The notes: generated by a model not told the origin, from the letters alone. DNA of 34,425 nt from Candidatus Kaiserbacteria bacterium (GCA_017134395.1 CP070993.1:153231-187655), one strand, 5' to 3'; shown: positions 5,378 to 30,448, numbered from the stretch's first letter. A program made the numbers and translations.

Positions 5378-7243
5378 ATGGAAGTGGGACCGTGGAAATC
5401 AGAGTCAGTCGAAAGCCCAGAACTTTTTCGTGGAACACTTGGATTTGACTTCGTGTTTACACGCGAAGATGGAAAGCTGAAGTGTTATTGTATCGAATTC
5501 AATGGGAGCAATAGTGGAGTACAAGGAGTGCGGCGGCTGCCTGCAGATGCTCTCGATGCAACACACAAAATTTTGGCATCAGTACGAAGCTCAGCAAGTG
5601 AAAAAACGCGAGAAGCAGTACGAAAGTACAACGATTTCATTAGAAGAAATCCGGACCAGTCTTTTTCAGTGGTGGTAGCAGGCCATCTTCGTGCACAGCT
5701 CGATGATGCACCATTGCATACGCATGAATATTCAAATCCGGAATTTATCCAAGATATAACACTGAATAAACGGCGCCAGGAAGAATATATACCACGCGCT
5801 AACCGACCAAACTCGTGGAAACCGGGCGATTCCACGAAATCTAAGAGCGGGTTTTGGATCTATAAAGAGGGTGGTTCGTCGCGTGGACAGGGTATCTACA
5901 TTCTTTCCGATACTGAACTAGCAGATATGCTTAAAGAGGCACCGAAGATAGACGAATCGACTCTTGGTAATGATGTTATACAAGAATTGTTGCCGGTCAC
6001 CGGTGCAGAAAATGCAACAGAGGCACACAAAAATCGTGCAGCTTCCATGCGCCTACTAATGGACTTCCGCTATTTAGAAGGCGGGACGATACAGTCGGAC
6101 TTTTCGACCAGCTATCAGCGAATTGCACCTCATGACAAAAATAGTACACAGACACCCGGTGGTGAGGATTTTCAAAAAGAGGATACTTTGGTGGTTAATT
6201 ATTCAACAGGTGCGCTTTCGGCTGCGGCTTCGCCAATGGAAATAAAGCTCGCAAAAGAAGTCGCAGAAAAAGTTATTCACAATCTAGCTAACACGTACAT
6301 AAAGAAGATGATTAATGAAGAGAAAGTACATCGACTTATGTTGGAAGTACCAACGGGCCGCTCACGCGAAGTAAGTGCAGTCAATAAGGAAGTGAATGAT
6401 GCACTTATTACATTGTACACGCGCTTTGAGGATACGTATGGTAGAGATTATCTACCATTTCATAATAGCTACCACACTGCGCGTGTTATTGCACGAGTCG
6501 ATAAGATATGGCGCAGTATTGACGAAGGTGAGCACGATTTAAAAGAGTACCTTCTTCTACGGCTATGTGCAGCATTTCATGACAGTGTTCAAAAATGGAA
6601 GTCATTCGAGATTGAAGAAGACTTCAATGGGCAGAAGTTTACGAAAATCGTTAGGAAACGTTTTACCGGACAAAATGAGAAAGAGAGTGCAGGTGAGCTT
6701 GTCGCATGTATGCGCCAGATTAATCAAGAAGTTAACTACGATTTTTTCTCTCGCGAAGATGAGCGTGTTGCACAGGAGGCCATTCAGGCAACGATACCTG
6801 CATTTGATATTGCACGTGGTACCGTGGGACAACCCAAACTTGAAAAACACTCATCGCGTGTTACACGACTTCTAGCACTTGCCGATCTCGGAGCTGCGGG
6901 ACTGGAGTCGGAAAAATTTGTATATGAAGGCAATAGAATTTTCCAAGAAGAAAACATTGATATCTATGAAGCCTTGCAAAGCCCTGAAAAGATCGATGAT
7001 GCGCATAAAGAATATTTTAGACATAGAATGTTCGAGTGGTCGAAGTCACAACCAAGATTCGCCAAAGGGCGACAACGACTCTTAGAGAAGGAGTTGGTTA
7101 GACTGCCACAGCGCGAAAAGAAGGAAATTAGATATCTGTTTTGCGGTTTTGAAGAAAGTATTGCATATGCAAAAGAGGCAGTTGAGAGACGACGTACTAT
7201 GAGTTTCGAGGAGCTTGCAAAAGATATGGGGTACGAGTTCTAG
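5378..7243 (+). CDS. ATP-grasp (tubulin-tyrosine-ligase-like) / HD-domain phosphohydrolase fusion protein
   Basis: 621 aa. ATP-grasp/TTL-type motifs FWIYKEGGSSRGQGIYIL, VIQELLP, MDFRYL and LVVNYSTGA, plus GFDFVF...YCIEFNGSNSG at the N-terminus. The C-terminal half has the H...HD pattern (FHNSYHTARVIA ... LCAAFHDSVQ). Confidence 0.6.
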   Translation: MEVGPWKSESVESPELFRGTLGFDFVFTREDGKLKCYCIEFNGSNSGVQGVRRLPADALDATHKILASVRSSASEKTREAVRKYNDFIRRNPDQSFSVVVAGHLRAQLDDAPLHTHEYSNPEFIQDITLNKRRQEEYIPRANRPNSWKPGDSTKSKSGFWIYKEGGSSRGQGIYILSDTELADMLKEAPKIDESTLGNDVIQELLPVTGAENATEAHKNRAASMRLLMDFRYLEGGTIQSDFSTSYQRIAPHDKNSTQTPGGEDFQKEDTLVVNYSTGALSAAASPMEIKLAKEVAEKVIHNLANTYIKKMINEEKVHRLMLEVPTGRSREVSAVNKEVNDALITLYTRFEDTYGRDYLPFHNSYHTARVIARVDKIWRSIDEGEHDLKEYLLLRLCAAFHDSVQKWKSFEIEEDFNGQKFTKIVRKRFTGQNEKESAGELVACMRQINQEVNYDFFSREDERVAQEAIQATIPAFDIARGTVGQPKLEKHSSRVTRLLALADLGAAGLESEKFVYEGNRIFQEENIDIYEALQSPEKIDDAHKEYFRHRMFEWSKSQPRFAKGRQRLLEKELVRLPQREKKEIRYLFCGFEESIAYAKEAVERRRTMSFEELAKDMGYEF

Positions 7244-12400: not shown

Positions 12401-13084
12401 ATGCAGGCAGTATTTTTAGTAGCAGGAGAAGGTACACGAATGCGCCCTCTTACGTACCATGTTCCAAAACCAATGGCTCGAGCTGGTGGTAAGAATCTTG
12501 TAGAGCACAATATTGATAATCTTCCGAAAGAAATAACCGAAATAATTTTTGTGGTTGGCTATTTGGCTGAACAAATCATGAATCACTTTGGGGACGAATA
12601 CGAAGGCCGTAAGATTACCTACGTGCGGCAAAAGAAGCTATTAGGTACTGCACATGCTCTTTCTTTGTGCCAAAAGCATCTACACGGACGCTTTATAGTA
12701 CTTATGGGTGACGACGTTTACGGAAAAGATGATATTAAGAATTGCCTGCAGTATGACTGGGCATGGCTCGTGAAGAAAGTTCGTGGAAAATTTACCGGTG
12801 GTCGAATTATTTATGATTCTGATGGCAACGTGACTTCTGTAACCGAGGGCAAGCATAATGTGAAAGATGGATTTGTCGGTACAAACCTATTTGTTTTAGG
12901 AATGGAATACTTTAACTATCAAATGGTACCAATTAAAGACGGTAAAGAGTACGGACTTCCTCAAACTGTAGCTCTCGCTGCGGAGGATTTCCCGATAAAA
13001 ATGGTGGAGGCAAAAAATTGGGAACAAATTAGCGACATGAATGATTTAAAAAGGTTGCATACACGTATCTCTAAAGGACAATAG
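12401..13084 (+). CDS. Sugar-phosphate nucleotidyltransferase (RmlA/GlmU N-terminal-like)
   Basis: N-terminal signature LVAGEGTRMRPLTYHVPKPM, i.e. G-x-G-T-R-x(n)-P-K. Confidence 0.8.
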   Translation: MQAVFLVAGEGTRMRPLTYHVPKPMARAGGKNLVEHNIDNLPKEITEIIFVVGYLAEQIMNHFGDEYEGRKITYVRQKKLLGTAHALSLCQKHLHGRFIVLMGDDVYGKDDIKNCLQYDWAWLVKKVRGKFTGGRIIYDSDGNVTSVTEGKHNVKDGFVGTNLFVLGMEYFNYQMVPIKDGKEYGLPQTVALAAEDFPIKMVEAKNWEQISDMNDLKRLHTRISKGQ

Positions 13085-13168
13085 TATCAATAAATAAGCG
13101 CCTTTTTAGAACTAAATGTCCATTAGATTTGGTGTATTTCAGTAGTATTTCGTAATGTATTTGCTTTC

Positions 13169-13198
13169 TTGACACCCTTTACGCTTCAACACTATAAT
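13169..13198 (+). promoter_or_regulatory. Consensus sigma70 promoter
   Basis: TTGACA (13169-13174), 18-nt spacer, TATAAT (13193-13198). It sits about 70 nt upstream of the 13272 start. Confidence 0.6.
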
Positions 13199-13271
13199 CA
13201 CAGTAACTTAAAGCTCTTTTTGTTCCTTTGGACACACTTTCAGACGAGGATTATTTTTTAACCGAAACAAA

Positions 13272-14429
13272 ATGAGTGCGCAACTTACTTCACTCGCGCA
13301 AACGCGCGGACTACAACTTTCTTTACTAACACTTTTGGCTGCATTATTTGTGCTTACACCTAGCCTTGCAAGCGCTAATACGTTGCCTATTGGCGTTCTT
13401 GAACGCCAGACATGTGACTCTTTTAGCGTTGATATACACGGCTATGGAGCTGGGATGATGCATAACGCAAATCCCATGGAGATTAGCGGACAACGAGTTA
13501 CTCATATTAGCGCTACAGAGAACTGCGCGGTGGTTGAGTGGCAAAGTTCTACTCCTGCCGCTACACAAGTGTTGTTTGCAGAACTTGGTGACGAACCAGT
13601 ACCTATCGATACATCCATTGATCCTGATTTCGGATACCCACACGCAAGCACACAAAACAATGCTGGTATCGCTAATCACGTAGCTATCCTAACTGGTCTT
13701 GAGGCAGGTAAGGCATACTCATACCGTGTGGTGACACGTTCACACCCAAGCGCGCTGCCAACGATAAGTGATCCTCAGGTTCTTATTGCTGGACCTTATA
13801 CAGTGCCGGTAGCACCAATAGTACCTACTACTCCAATTGTTACACCAACTCCTACATTTGATGCAGAGAAGTTCCCAATAACACCAACTGCTACAGTAAA
13901 GCCAGTAGCAGTGACCCCGGTTACAGAAATAAAGGAAATAGAGGACGATAAAGATGTTACGGTTCCGGCTGCTATTACTGCCGCATCAAACGCTTTTGGT
14001 GCAACTTCGCGGGAAGGAAGTCTATGGGAAACTATCACAGGATTCTTTAACCGTATAACCCCTGACGTAAGTCGTTTAAGCCTTTCGTCAAACATTGGTC
14101 TATTTGAGAAGGATCGCTACATCGTTCCAACACTATTCTTCCTTGTTGTCTTGTTTCTGATACAGCATCTTATTCTTCCGGCATTCAGTATCAGTCTCAA
14201 AAACCCTCTTCTGTATTGGCTTGTTGGTAGTGTTGTTCTTGCGGTTCTCTCTTCGGTATTTATGCTGTACTACGTAACGCTTATAGCAATCGCACTGTTT
14301 TTAGGTATTCTTGCGTGGTATTTATTGCAAAATATTTCCGATGAGGATGGCACTCCAGTTCAGCCAAAGTTGCTTGAAACAATCGGCTCAGACGCAAAGG
14401 ATTCAAACAAGAAAAAAGATGAAAAGTAG
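13272..14429 (+). CDS. Secreted, membrane-anchored hypothetical protein
   Basis: Signal-peptide-like N-terminus and an Fn3/purple-acid-phosphatase-N-like segment (VEWQSSTPAATQVLF...GKAYSYRVV). A Pro/Thr/Val-rich linker follows, then C-terminal TM helices and a Lys-rich tail. Confidence 0.6.
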   Translation: MSAQLTSLAQTRGLQLSLLTLLAALFVLTPSLASANTLPIGVLERQTCDSFSVDIHGYGAGMMHNANPMEISGQRVTHISATENCAVVEWQSSTPAATQVLFAELGDEPVPIDTSIDPDFGYPHASTQNNAGIANHVAILTGLEAGKAYSYRVVTRSHPSALPTISDPQVLIAGPYTVPVAPIVPTTPIVTPTPTFDAEKFPITPTATVKPVAVTPVTEIKEIEDDKDVTVPAAITAASNAFGATSREGSLWETITGFFNRITPDVSRLSLSSNIGLFEKDRYIVPTLFFLVVLFLIQHLILPAFSISLKNPLLYWLVGSVVLAVLSSVFMLYYVTLIAIALFLGILAWYLLQNISDEDGTPVQPKLLETIGSDAKDSNKKKDEK

Positions 14430-18972: not shown

Positions 18973-20764
<1,792 letters not shown>

Positions 20765-27907: not shown

Positions 27908-27935
27908 TTGACAATTTTTTCCCATTTGATATCTT
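27908..27935 (+). promoter_or_regulatory. Near-consensus promoter driving the candidate sRNA
   Basis: TTGACA (27908-27913), 16-nt spacer, TGaTATCTT (TG 27927-27928, TATCTT 27930-27935). Confidence 0.6.
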
Positions 27936-27941
27936 ATCGGA

Positions 27942-28124
27942 ACGGTAGTCAGCTTGCTGATTGCCGTACTGGTGACTACTTCAAGTCTTCGGACTCGAAA
28001 TGGCCACCATGTAGGTCGACTCTTCGGAGTTGATCTACATGGTGTCCGTTTCAATCTTTTGACCTTCGGGGATAGGGAAAGAAATGAACACCAATGAAAA
28101 ATGTCTACTTCGGTAGGCGTTTTT
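27942..28124 (+). ncRNA. Candidate novel structured sRNA (~185 nt), class unknown
   Basis: No ORF. Five consecutive hairpins: 27942-27967 (CUUG loop), 27980-27999, 28002-28047 (about 20 bp), 28055-28082 and 28103-28118. The last four close on UUCG loops and the final one is followed by GTTTTT. Several G-U pairs work only on the + strand. Confidence 0.55.
28097..28124 (+). terminator. Intrinsic terminator ending the candidate sRNA
   Basis: GTCTAC ttcg GTAGGC followed by GTTTTT, with an A-run upstream. Confidence 0.7.
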
Positions 28125-28145
28125 CATATCTGAGTAAATAATTAC

Positions 28146-28171
28146 AAAAAGCCGCATATATGCGGCTTTTT
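28146..28171. terminator. 26-nt perfect palindromic bidirectional terminator
   Basis: AAAAAGCCGCATATATGCGGCTTTTT. Confidence 0.75.
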
Positions 28172-28258
28172 CTATTGCAACATAGGTATATTTATGCAAC
28201 TATCAAGCAAGTTTGTACTTTTTGTTCAACTAGTCTAGTCATGAAAGGGAGACTAATA

Positions 28259-29191
28259 ATGGCTACGGTTGCAAAACTTGAATCGACTGAAGAAGACTTC
28301 AGTCCAAATACTATTTACCCTGTGACGCTGAACCAAATTCTTCCATTTCCGGACCAGCCTCGGCAACATTTTGACGAACAAGGCATCAAGGATTTGGCAG
28401 AAAGTATTCAGGAAAAAGGCCAGCAAACGCCCGTCGTTCTCTGCAAGAACCCCAGTTATCCTGAACATTTTATGCTCGTCGGGGGTGAAAGACGCTTTCG
28501 GGCGTTCACTCTCATAAGTCAGCTTACTGGGAAAAATCCTGAAGTCCTTGCGGTGTTTAAGCCGTTCGAAAATGGGGAAAATCATTTCCGGATTGCGTTG
28601 CTTGATAATCACCACAGAAAAGGTCTTTGCGAACTTGATGAAGCACATGCATTCGCGAAACTTCATCATAAATTTGGCGACACAATTGCACGTATCGCCA
28701 AAGACATGGGAAAGTCAGTTTCCCATGTTAACCAATACATTCTGGTTGCCGGCCTCCCTGAGGAGGTAAAGGAACTGATGAATCCAAATCTTCCCAGAAT
28801 CGAAAGGCTCAACATAAGTGCGGCAATAAAGATTGCACAAGGGGTTCCTAAGAGCAATCCCGATCTGCGTATTGAACTTGCCAGGGAATCTGTGGAAAGA
28901 AGTCTGCCGGTAGTTGAGGTTAGTGCATTCGTCGAAAGGAGAACTGAGCAAGCCGGATACCGCATTGGTGGAAGCAGAAGAAAACCTTCTGATGATTATA
29001 AGGCGCTTCTGGGGTTTTTCGGGAGAACAAAAACCCAGCTTAAGCGTCACTGTGCGCATCCAAATATCGAAGCGCTATTCCTAAAACGAGACGATCCTGC
29101 AGCTGATAAAAAAGCAGCTCTGGAGAGTATCGATTCCGTTGTGCGACAACTGGAATCACTTCGTCGCAAAATTGCAGGCGATGAAACGTAG
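28259..29191 (+). CDS. ParB/Srx-family protein (ParB N-terminal domain plus HTH), orphan
   Basis: ParB box motifs LPFPDQPRQHFDEQGIKDLAESIQEKGQQTPVV and VGGERRFRAF, then HTH DTIARIAKDMGKSVSHVNQYILVAGLPEEVKELM. The ATG at 28259 has GGGAG 7 nt upstream. The track start at 28160 lies inside the terminator palindrome. Confidence 0.8.
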   Translation: MATVAKLESTEEDFSPNTIYPVTLNQILPFPDQPRQHFDEQGIKDLAESIQEKGQQTPVVLCKNPSYPEHFMLVGGERRFRAFTLISQLTGKNPEVLAVFKPFENGENHFRIALLDNHHRKGLCELDEAHAFAKLHHKFGDTIARIAKDMGKSVSHVNQYILVAGLPEEVKELMNPNLPRIERLNISAAIKIAQGVPKSNPDLRIELARESVERSLPVVEVSAFVERRTEQAGYRIGGSRRKPSDDYKALLGFFGRTKTQLKRHCAHPNIEALFLKRDDPAADKKAALESIDSVVRQLESLRRKIAGDET

Positions 29192-29211
29192 ACAACCAAT
29201 GAGACAACAAA

Positions 29212-29249
29212 ACTGGGCAAGACGTTACGACGTCTTGCCCAGTCTTTTT
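29212..29249 (+). terminator. Strong intrinsic terminator after the ParB-like gene
   Basis: ACTGGGCAAGACGT tacg ACGTCTTGCCCAGT (14-bp stem) followed by CTTTTT. Confidence 0.85.
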
Positions 29250-29250
29250 A

Positions 29251-29279
29251 TTGACAATAAACGAAACCTGCGGTTAACT
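29251..29279 (+). promoter_or_regulatory. Promoter of the CtrA-like gene
   Basis: TTGACA (29251-29256), 17-nt spacer, TTAACT (29274-29279). Confidence 0.5.
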
Positions 29280-29323
29280 CACGTATAGTATTGTTCCTAA
29301 CCAACCAACAAAGGAGAGGTTCT

Positions 29324-30070
29324 ATGAAAATTCTCTGTGTAGGTGTTGATGAGACTACGCTAGAATTCTTGAGAGCACATGGATTCGCGATCGAGGAGGG
29401 ATCGGACATTGAAACTGCTGAAGATCTCGATCCTTACTTGCTGGGTCTTGAATCTGCTGCTGGCCTTGTAGACGTTGAGGCAAGTGGTCTTGGAATTTTC
29501 TTTCCACGATCAGTTCGCAATGCAAGAAACACCACGCCACTTGTCGGAATCGCATCGGTCAACAAAGACGAAGCATGGTCAGAAACATGTGCCGAATTTT
29601 TGGAAATCGGGGGAGACTATTTGGTCAAACGGCCGGTAAGTCCGCGAGAAGTAATTGCTGCCCTAAGTTCGAGCATACGCCGATCAAACAACGGCTTGCA
29701 TGACATCGTCTTCTGCGAACTGCAGGATCCTAAATTGGGAGATCTTACTCTCAAGATCAATACAACGACGAGCAGAGTGTATGTCGATGATAAAGAGATC
29801 CTTCTTACTGGCAAAGAAAGAAGCTGTATTCGTACGCTTGCTTTGGCCGTAGACAGAGTGCTTTCAAAAGAGCAGATTCTCAACAGCATGTACGCCCTCG
29901 AAATTGATGAGCCGGAATTAAAAATTATCGACGTCTTCATGTGCAAGATTCGTAAAAAACTGGCAGAAGTCGATCCACGTGCCAGCATTTTTATTCAGAC
30001 AATTTGGGGTCGAGGCTACTCTTTGGTAAGCCTGCTTGCCCTAAACAACTCTGAACAAAAGGCTGTGTGA
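29324..30070 (+). CDS. OmpR-family response regulator with a CtrA-type DNA-binding domain
   Basis: The ATG at 29324 is preceded by AAAGGAGAGG. The receiver has D9/E10, D50 and K102 at the expected spacing. The output domain reads LLTGKE...DEPELKIIDVFMCKIRKKL...QTIWGRGYSL, closely matching the CtrA recognition-helix region as I recall it. Confidence 0.8.
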   Translation: MKILCVGVDETTLEFLRAHGFAIEEGSDIETAEDLDPYLLGLESAAGLVDVEASGLGIFFPRSVRNARNTTPLVGIASVNKDEAWSETCAEFLEIGGDYLVKRPVSPREVIAALSSSIRRSNNGLHDIVFCELQDPKLGDLTLKINTTTSRVYVDDKEILLTGKERSCIRTLALAVDRVLSKEQILNSMYALEIDEPELKIIDVFMCKIRKKLAEVDPRASIFIQTIWGRGYSLVSLLALNNSEQKAV

Positions 30071-30071
30071 C

Positions 30072-30112
30072 AAAATGGACCCGGAGCATCGAAATGCACC
30101 GGGTCCTTTTTT
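30072..30112. terminator. Bidirectional terminator shared by the convergent CtrA-like and SciP-like genes
   Basis: GGACCCGG ... CCGGGTCC with inner GCAT/ATGC pairing. TTTTTT lies downstream and an A-run upstream. Confidence 0.8.
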
Positions 30113-30353
30113 AATGACGACGCGTCACGCGAAGCCCTTTCACACCGTCTTTTTGTAAGGTAGTTCGCCACTCGATAAGCGTGTTCGCGTCGACATCGTA
30201 CTTTTTTTCTAGTCTCTCAAAAGAAAGGATGCCTAGATCGACAGCTCTCACAATCATCGCCTTACGTCCAGGTGTCCAGCGAGTTATGGTCGGAGGAAGA
30301 TCTTCTTCCCTCAAAATGGAATTGCCCTCAGCATCATACAGAGTTCCACTCAC
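30111..30353 (-). CDS. SciP/DUF1153-like small HTH protein
   Basis: 80 aa. GTG start preceded by AAAGGAG. The pattern DLPPTITRWTPGRKAMIVRAVDLGILSFERLEKKY...IEW....QKDGVKGLRVTRR matches the DUF1153/SciP consensus from memory. Confidence 0.7.
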   Translation of the reverse strand: MSGTLYDAEGNSILREEDLPPTITRWTPGRKAMIVRAVDLGILSFERLEKKYDVDANTLIEWRTTLQKDGVKGLRVTRRH

Positions 30354-30448
30354 AGTTATCTCCTTTACCTGTTCAAGTGCCTAATTTGAGTATATGATAG
30401 GCCATATATTTTGTCCATATTACCCATTGCTCAAAATAGAAATAATAT

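Follow-up and report, generated by a model that had tools for sequence, protein, structure and literature searches.

In Alphaproteobacteria, CtrA and SciP count as hallmarks of the control of cell cycle and motility. To our knowledge, SciP is the only characterised member of the DUF1153 family, the CtrA/SciP pair is known only from Alphaproteobacteria, and the control of cell cycle and attachment in CPR bacteria is essentially unknown. A compact control system of a different kind is found on plasmid RK2, in which KorA, a small repressor with an HTH, acts jointly with KorB, a clamp of the ParB family. The literature that we searched contained no paper tying CtrA or SciP to CPR/Patescibacteria. 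As described in two papers, SciP binds CtrA and impairs the recruitment of RNA polymerase (PMC4083442; PMC6847485); the first of these also presents the alternative view that SciP binds DNA directly, and treats the debate as unresolved.

Here, we describe a pair of CtrA-type and SciP-type genes whose CtrA-type member has a pseudo-receiver; the pair has an obligatory ParB-like companion and is apparently mobile among Paceibacterota. It lies in a stretch of 34,425 nucleotides, hereafter called the window, which also carries the housekeeping genes uvrC, murB, ddl, the atp operon and ychF, as well as a DUF5671 gene. The AtpD of the window shares 81-83% identity with proteins that bear the names Kaiserbacteria, Paceibacterota and Parcubacteria, and its YchF and AtpA fall into clusters of at least 90% identity with MAG proteins of Parcubacteria group bacterium. 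As judged from its genes, the host is a Parcubacteria/Paceibacterota (CPR/Patescibacteria) chromosome, on a contig of 687,746 bp, and not that of an alphaproteobacterium. The features of the locus are as follows.

28128-30447, unstranded: cassette insertion of about 2.3 kb, delimited by the synteny break against close relatives
28146-28171, unstranded: hairpin of terminator type, a perfect palindrome, at the insertion's left edge; present in the window alone
28259-29191, plus strand: ParB-like gene, in an ORF that opens at 28160; the likely start is M28 or M34 (28241 or 28259)
29212-29243, plus strand: hairpin resembling a terminator, in the gap from the ParB-like to the CtrA-like gene, with a 14-bp stem and then a T-run
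29324-30070, plus strand: 248-aa CtrA-like regulator of the OmpR family, its receiver domain degenerate (a pseudo-receiver), from HMM matches and an AF2 model
30072-30111, both strands: bidirectional intrinsic-terminator hairpin common to the convergent CtrA-like and DUF1153 genes
30111-30353, minus strand: small DUF1153/SciP-like HTH gene, 80 aa, GTG start
30360-30364, minus strand: Shine-Dalgarno sequence AGGAG, 6 nt 5' of the GTG of the DUF1153 gene, read from the sequence
30389-30417, minus strand: promoter-like site TGGACA-17-TATACT (sigma-70-like), upstream of the DUF1153 gene and divergent from ychF

A preliminary description of this DNA had placed a gene for an 80-aa product at 30111-30353 and had likened the product to DUF1153 and SciP. 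We found the gene exactly there, as an ORF on the minus strand with a GTG start (product: MSGTLYDAEGNSILREEDLPPTITRWTPGRKAMIVRAVDLGILSFERLEKKYDVDANTLIEWRTTLQKDGVKGLRVTRRH). The motif quoted for it is present, with one spacer wrong (DLPP-x2-T-RW rather than x3), and reads DLPP..T-RW-TPG-RKA-M-IV-R-AV-D-LG-I-LS ... GLRVTRR. The protein matches Pfam DUF1153 (PF06627) with 59.2 bits, where the gathering score is 23.5, its residues 12-78 aligning to profile positions 15-82 of 87; with an E-value of 4.5e-16, the likeness is not a matter of chance. The sole substantial NCBIfam model is the CtrA inhibitor SciP (NF051866), with 56.7 bits against a cut-off of 100; when this model was calibrated, ctrA-linked DUF1153 proteins of Alphaproteobacteria scored 117-145 bits, those of the CPR cassette 79-92 bits and that of a close relative (L084) 90 bits. 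By these profile scores, the protein is SciP-like, as had been proposed, but is not a SciP equivalog.

A HMMER search against 1.84 billion representative proteins returned 730 matches with E <= 1e-3, only three of which reached E <= 1e-10, so that the window protein is a divergent member of the family; a word-indexed homologue search returned no match besides the protein itself. In the best database match (P0122, 163 aa, JGI 3300078620), two DUF1153 domains resembling those of the CPR cassette (RDLNGDVI...RW.PN.KA) are fused in tandem. The genomic contexts of the two best library matches, P0122 and P0123, are a 970-bp contig and a non-CPR locus without ctrA, respectively. L19, P20, W26, K31, W62, G70, L74 and T77 are common to the window protein, the other cassette proteins and alphaproteobacterial SciPs. 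The window protein lacks the near-invariant Glu58 and the C-terminal tail past GLRVT, is the shortest and most divergent member, and by pairwise score stands equally near cassette and other DUF1153 proteins. Its best PDB sequence matches, 2jrt (E = 3.5e-7) and 2oa4 (E = 4e-6), are also the top Foldseek matches (probability 1.00 and TMq 0.65 for 2jrt, probability 0.99 for 2oa4) of its AF2 model, which has a pLDDT of 85 and three helices (28-40, 45-52 and 56-69). We rejected an accessory HTH remnant of an IS3 or IS66 element as the identity of the protein: HTH_Tnp_1 reaches 16.2 bits (cut-off 24.1) and IS66 TnpA 20.8 bits (cut-off 74), neither a better match than DUF1153. No transposase ORF was found within 27.5-33 kb of the window.

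The gene appears to be equipped for expression. Its promoter-like site has 10/12 matches in a consensus scan, and the Shine-Dalgarno, -10 and -35 blocks are kept in the alignment of the window with L084; compared by eye, the upstream regions of DUF1153 genes have no common motif except for the -10/-35-like blocks. The arms of the terminator (30072-30089 and 30094-30111) are 18 nt long, 89% complementary and separated by a 4-nt loop; an A-run flanks the repeat on one side, a T-run on the opposite one, and the CtrA-like and DUF1153 stop codons are 40 nt apart. Folding energies on the two strands are -22.5 and -23.6 kcal/mol (z of about -5 on both), and none of 200 shuffles folds as well; the hairpin is a bidirectional intrinsic terminator, as had been suggested.

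These signals also bear on whether the small gene is a decaying or functionless remnant (truncated, borne by the insertion, or an IS OrfA-type HTH fragment), in which case its adjacency to the CtrA-like gene would be meaningless. Such a reading could account for the shortness and divergence of the protein, for the missing tail and Glu58, for an identity of 41% to the L084 homologue despite 92% for AtpD, for a split copy at one other locus (L156), and for the weak resemblance to HTH_Tnp_1 and IS66 TnpA. However, the ORF is intact and has its Shine-Dalgarno sequence, promoter-like site and terminator; every core invariant residue is retained and the AF2 model is confident; transposases are absent nearby and the IS models stay under their cut-offs; and the other two cassette proteins are just as divergent. 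We therefore consider a remnant very improbable.

The convergent CtrA-like partner reported alongside the small gene is an OmpR-family gene (29324-30070, plus strand) for which CtrA is indeed the best NCBIfam model, with 104.4 bits as compared to 64 for OmpR, the next best. The CtrA cut-off is 350 bits, however, and Trans_reg_C is the only Pfam match of the 248-aa protein, with PF00072 (Response_reg) absent even at E <= 1. Judged by this score and by the missing canonical receiver, the neighbour is not a CtrA equivalog. Annotation pipelines already name such neighbour proteins ‘CtrA’. The CtrA-like protein of the window forms a small clade with P0003-P0012 (37-48% identity), none of which has a PF00072 match, and the next-best matches after these are genuine alphaproteobacterial CtrAs (31-39% identity). 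The recognition helix KIIDVFxCKxRKK is invariant between the degenerate-receiver clade and true CtrAs, with K200, I201, I202, D203, V204, F205, C207, K208, R210 and K212 unchanged across 11 clade members and three alphaproteobacterial CtrAs. In the receiver of the clade, another residue stands throughout in place of the Lys that precedes the conserved Pro, and the acceptor Asp is either D or N.

The AF2 model of the CtrA-like protein (pLDDT 82) combines a (beta-alpha)5 receiver fold with a winged helix, and Foldseek relates it to OmpR/PhoB regulators, among them HP1043, RitR and CosR. A receiver that has neither its sequence signature nor the invariant Lys suggests that the CtrA-type factor is probably phosphorylation-independent and, as predicted from its residues, probably has no need of a phosphorelay. 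The window ORFs scanned, which took in those at 27.6-32.6 kb and a part of the others, included no identifiable gene for a kinase or phosphotransferase. The CtrA box TTAA-N7-TTAA is absent from the 34-kb window (0 against 1.5 expected) and is not enriched upstream of the cassette genes in 11 loci; this consensus may not be that of the CPR factor.

To place the locus among its relatives, metagenome contigs were scanned with the N-terminal domain of the degenerate-receiver CtrA-like clade alone, which gave 30 loci, and neighbouring genes were called by six-frame HMM scan. The order of the cassette is ParB-like, CtrA-like with degenerate receiver, then convergent DUF1153. The ParB-like gene lies directly 5' of the CtrA-like gene in all related loci with enough upstream sequence, and a convergent DUF1153 gene lies directly 3' of it in 18 loci, or 11 distinct lineages after dereplication; in a twelfth lineage (L185), DUF1153 is present with a second CtrA-like paralogue in between. 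The convergent adjacency of CtrA-like and DUF1153 genes therefore recurs in related genomes: of about 20 distinct lineages of Paceibacterota/Kaiserbacteria, 11-12 have it, and the two stop codons are 13-79 nt apart. Thus, the earlier observation of the two halves of a CtrA/SciP pair side by side holds, but it had passed over the ParB-like gene and the degenerate receiver. Eight lineages (L001, L003, L161, L164, L165, L167, L173 and L184) have no DUF1153 gene beside the ParB-like and CtrA-like genes within the available sequence. Proteins flanking several of the cassette loci are named Candidatus Paceibacterota or Kaiserbacteria, and the flanking gene content varies between lineages.

Across 11 loci, the divergences of the three cassette genes are correlated (r = 0.56-0.73). 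All three window proteins are deep-branching, with 28-44% identity to those of other loci, so that the divergence of the DUF1153 protein is cassette-wide. A second CtrA-like paralogue on the opposite strand adjoins the cassette in L164 (1076-1840, minus strand), L165 (7000-7758, minus strand), L184 (130-804, minus strand) and L185 (596-1297, minus strand), and also in L161; in L164, it stands where DUF1153 would be. The cassette DUF1153 of L156 (6294-6649, minus strand) is split into two frames, by a frameshift or an assembly error, and is intact in the near-identical contigs L157-L159.

Comparison with six close relatives (AtpD 87-93% identical), which are syntenic over the atp operon, an RND pump and a 73-aa gene, delimited the cassette. 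Blastn synteny ends at window position 28127 and restarts at 30448/30458, at the start of ychF, and in L087 the two break points are about 40 bp apart (site 19594-19632). In four relatives (L087, L088, L090 and L091) the site is empty and a conserved non-coding element lies directly before ychF; L189 has an unrelated CTP_transf_like gene in place of the cassette (site 12886-13484); and L084 has DUF1153 alone, without the CtrA-like and ParB-like genes (site 19135-19902). DUF1153 is thus missing at the insertion site in five of the six. As the block of about 2.3 kb is present in the window and missing or partial in the relatives, the cassette is accessory, and its site, with the sRNA-like element on one side and ychF on the other, is a hotspot of variable content. 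The edges of the insertion showed no direct repeats or att-like sites, and the insert contains no integrase, transposase, replication or mobilisation genes. One gain followed by partial loss in L084 and stepwise acquisition both fit the history of the cassette. The suggestion that the pair moved or was retained as a block is supported by an insertion missing in relatives and by the correlated divergences, with the caveat that L084 keeps DUF1153 without a CtrA-like gene.

The DUF1153 gene of L084 (19540-19809, minus strand, 89 aa) begins with MSGT like that of the window, and the DUF1153-ychF intergenic region aligns between the two, which indicates that the genes are positional homologues. The public gene call at this place is a 202-aa ORF on the opposite strand (19265-19873, plus strand) that has no Pfam match and hides the DUF1153 gene; such genes are therefore under-represented in protein databases. 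Repeated palindromic units lie within 400 bp upstream in L084. Together with the eight lineages lacking DUF1153, the solitary gene of L084 suggests that neither partner strictly needs the other.

A DUF1153 gene standing alone, its promoter and Shine-Dalgarno sequence kept, is also what would be expected if the protein were an autonomous sequence-specific DNA-binding repressor with a SciP-like TGTCGCG-type motif, and if adjacency to the CtrA-like gene merely reflected a shared regulon logic. The three-helix HTH fold predicted for the window protein would suit such a role, as would the debate on direct binding of DNA by SciP (PMC4083442). On the other hand, the close convergent placement beside the CtrA-like gene and the correlated divergence of the two suggest functional coupling, and the window protein is devoid of the basic C-terminal tail of its relatives. 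On balance, autonomous repression seems to us rather unlikely.

Several further observations concern the surroundings of the insertion and the rest of the window. Between the 73-aa gene and the insertion, a non-coding element of about 190 nt (window 27936-28130, plus strand) is 71-87% identical among relatives, above the flanking coding sequence. It has a promoter-like TTGACA-16-TATCTT at 27908-27935, several UUCG hairpins and its own terminator, and RNAalifold folds it with 59 pairs, of which 12 show compensatory changes. Near the cassette and this element, no Rfam family reached its gathering score; the element is likely an undescribed sRNA or ychF leader of the Parcubacteria lineage. In the atp operon, zero to three small ORFs without a Pfam match lie between atpG and atpD across the lineage (window 18973-19341, plus strand; L084 8843-9948; L088 9591-9965; L091 8547-9089), and L091 has an NTPase_I-T gene between atpA and atpG. 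Just 3' of a tRNA-Ala gene, the window contains a 621-aa ORF (5378-7243, plus strand) that matches nothing in Pfam at E <= 1e-3; after it comes a gene for an HTH_24/MarR-like protein of 107 aa.

The third gene of the cassette encodes a ParB-like protein with ParB_N and HTH_ParB domains, TIGR00180 at 104.8 bits against a cut-off of 58.45, and an intact CTP-binding motif GERRFRA (GGERRFRAF in the translated ORF). Its KorB Pfam match is weak, 16 bits and under cut-off. No ParA gene was found beside it in the flanks of the window and related loci, and no canonical parS with up to two mismatches occurs in the window, where the only sites are three-mismatch ones, all outside the cassette.

A phage origin of the cassette was rejected: there was no DUF1153 match in INPHARED, no PHROG match and no DUF1153 of the CPR type in IMG/VR, where CtrA-like matches over the full length are at most 35% identical. 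We also rejected an anti-phage defence system, as PADLOC gave only a chance-level match of 13.8 bits to the ParB-like protein; its defence models matched neither the DUF1153 nor the CtrA-like protein. Viral contigs in IMG/VR do encode short free-standing proteins or segments whose likeness to the CtrA-type protein is confined to the DNA-binding domain, with 45-62% identity over query residues of about 143-236 (loci L100, L105, L115-L117, L121, L123, L128 and others). They may be phage-borne mimics of this domain.

The ParB-like and CtrA-like genes are always together, and their co-occurrence is consequently silent on which of the two DUF1153 partners. By analogy with KorA and KorB, the DUF1153 protein could work with the ParB-like protein, and the cassette could be a partition- or silencing-type control region, perhaps the remnant of a mobile replicon. 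The presence of the ParB-like gene, with GERRFRA intact, in all cassette loci with enough sequence would fit this proposal, as would the lack of an adjoining ParA in an accessory cassette inserted at a hotspot. The link to ParB is moreover new: in the alphaproteobacterial background, which consisted of 80 ctrA loci among the matches listed from a contig profile scan with the full CtrA-like alignment, none of the 80 had a ParB-like gene within 10 kb. Against it, SciP, the characterised DUF1153 member, partners CtrA; the DUF1153 gene stands tail-to-tail with the CtrA-like gene rather than with parB; and we found no parS-like site, no replication, mobilisation or integrase genes, and no plasmid or phage matches. 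We regard a partnership with ParB as distinctly unlikely.

The small HTH protein most likely modulates the adjacent CtrA-like factor, as far as homology and gene order can tell. More specifically, we think it somewhat more likely than not that DUF1153, the third member of the cassette, is a SciP-like modulator of a phosphorylation-independent CtrA-like factor. By homology to SciP, it would act by binding the protein or by binding DNA jointly with it, most likely as an anti-activator, and it could block the recruitment of RNA polymerase by the CtrA-like factor in the manner carried over from Caulobacter SciP. The two genes would then make up a self-contained pair of regulator and antagonist, without a need for the CckA-ChpT phosphorelay. 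A broader proposal, which we put forward as a tentative possibility, is that the cassette is a horizontally mobile module of Paceibacterota composed of a phosphorelay-independent CtrA-type factor, a SciP-type antagonist and a ParA-less ParB. It could serve as a minimal, kinase-free CtrA/SciP switch of cell cycle or surface appendages in physical connection with a CTPase that binds the chromosome; phyla would have exchanged it as one block, and close relatives could differ by its gain or loss.

If SciP-like modulation is correct, a pair of regulator and antagonist would be portable and would work outside its native phosphorelay, and the cassette would offer a rare entry into gene regulation in ultra-small, host-dependent CPR bacteria. 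Lineages with the full triad, those with the ParB-like and CtrA-like genes only and those with DUF1153 only form a natural comparison set for dissecting the partners. The findings should be of relevance to those who study CPR bacteria or the control of the cell cycle in Alphaproteobacteria.

Compared with described systems, the CtrA-like neighbour resembles the atypical, phosphorylation-independent OmpR regulators HP1043 (2hqr), RitR (5u8m) and CosR (8uvx) in combining a receiver fold, its phospho-acceptor pocket degenerate, with a wHTH, whereas its DNA-binding domain is specifically CtrA-type. The RK2 KorA-KorB system is similar to the cassette as a compact control module of a small HTH protein and a ParA-less ParB-family protein with regulators; however, the cassette is chromosomal and without plasmid functions, and the likeness is one of analogy, not of KorA sequence. 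Closest to the window DUF1153 protein by both sequence and fold are 2jrt (Rhodobacter sphaeroides RHOS4_12090) and 2oa4 (SiR5), to which it is about 26-29% identical in structural alignment, with shorter N- and C-termini.

With SciP of Caulobacter crescentus and other Alphaproteobacteria (NF051866), the window protein has in common the Pfam family, a three-helix HTH of about 80-95 aa, the core motif DLPP..RW..RKA..AV..GL...Y....W....G..GL.VT and a genomic link to a CtrA-type regulator. It differs in its CPR host, in RWTP for RWV(I/A), and in lacking Glu58 and the C-terminal QxYRQ tail; the locus differs in a partner with a degenerate receiver, in the linked ParB-like gene and in that no CtrA box of the TTAA-N7-TTAA consensus was found upstream. 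Among the matches listed from the full-alignment contig scan, there were no members of the degenerate-receiver clade, and DUF1153 lay within 10 kb of ctrA in 15 of the 80 alphaproteobacterial loci. With no ParB-like gene near any of these listed loci, and with the same-strand order seen in Rhodobacterales, both the link to ParB and the convergent arrangement set the CPR cassette apart. In Rhodobacterales (L007, L014, L035, L049, L072, L075 and L077), DUF1153 directly adjoins ctrA, as it does in the CPR cassette, but there sciP lies upstream on the strand of ctrA and no ParB-like gene is present, whereas the CPR DUF1153 gene is downstream and convergent, with a terminator in common. The adjacency of sciP and ctrA in Rhodobacterales nonetheless indicates that the pair can exist as a linked unit, able to transfer together.
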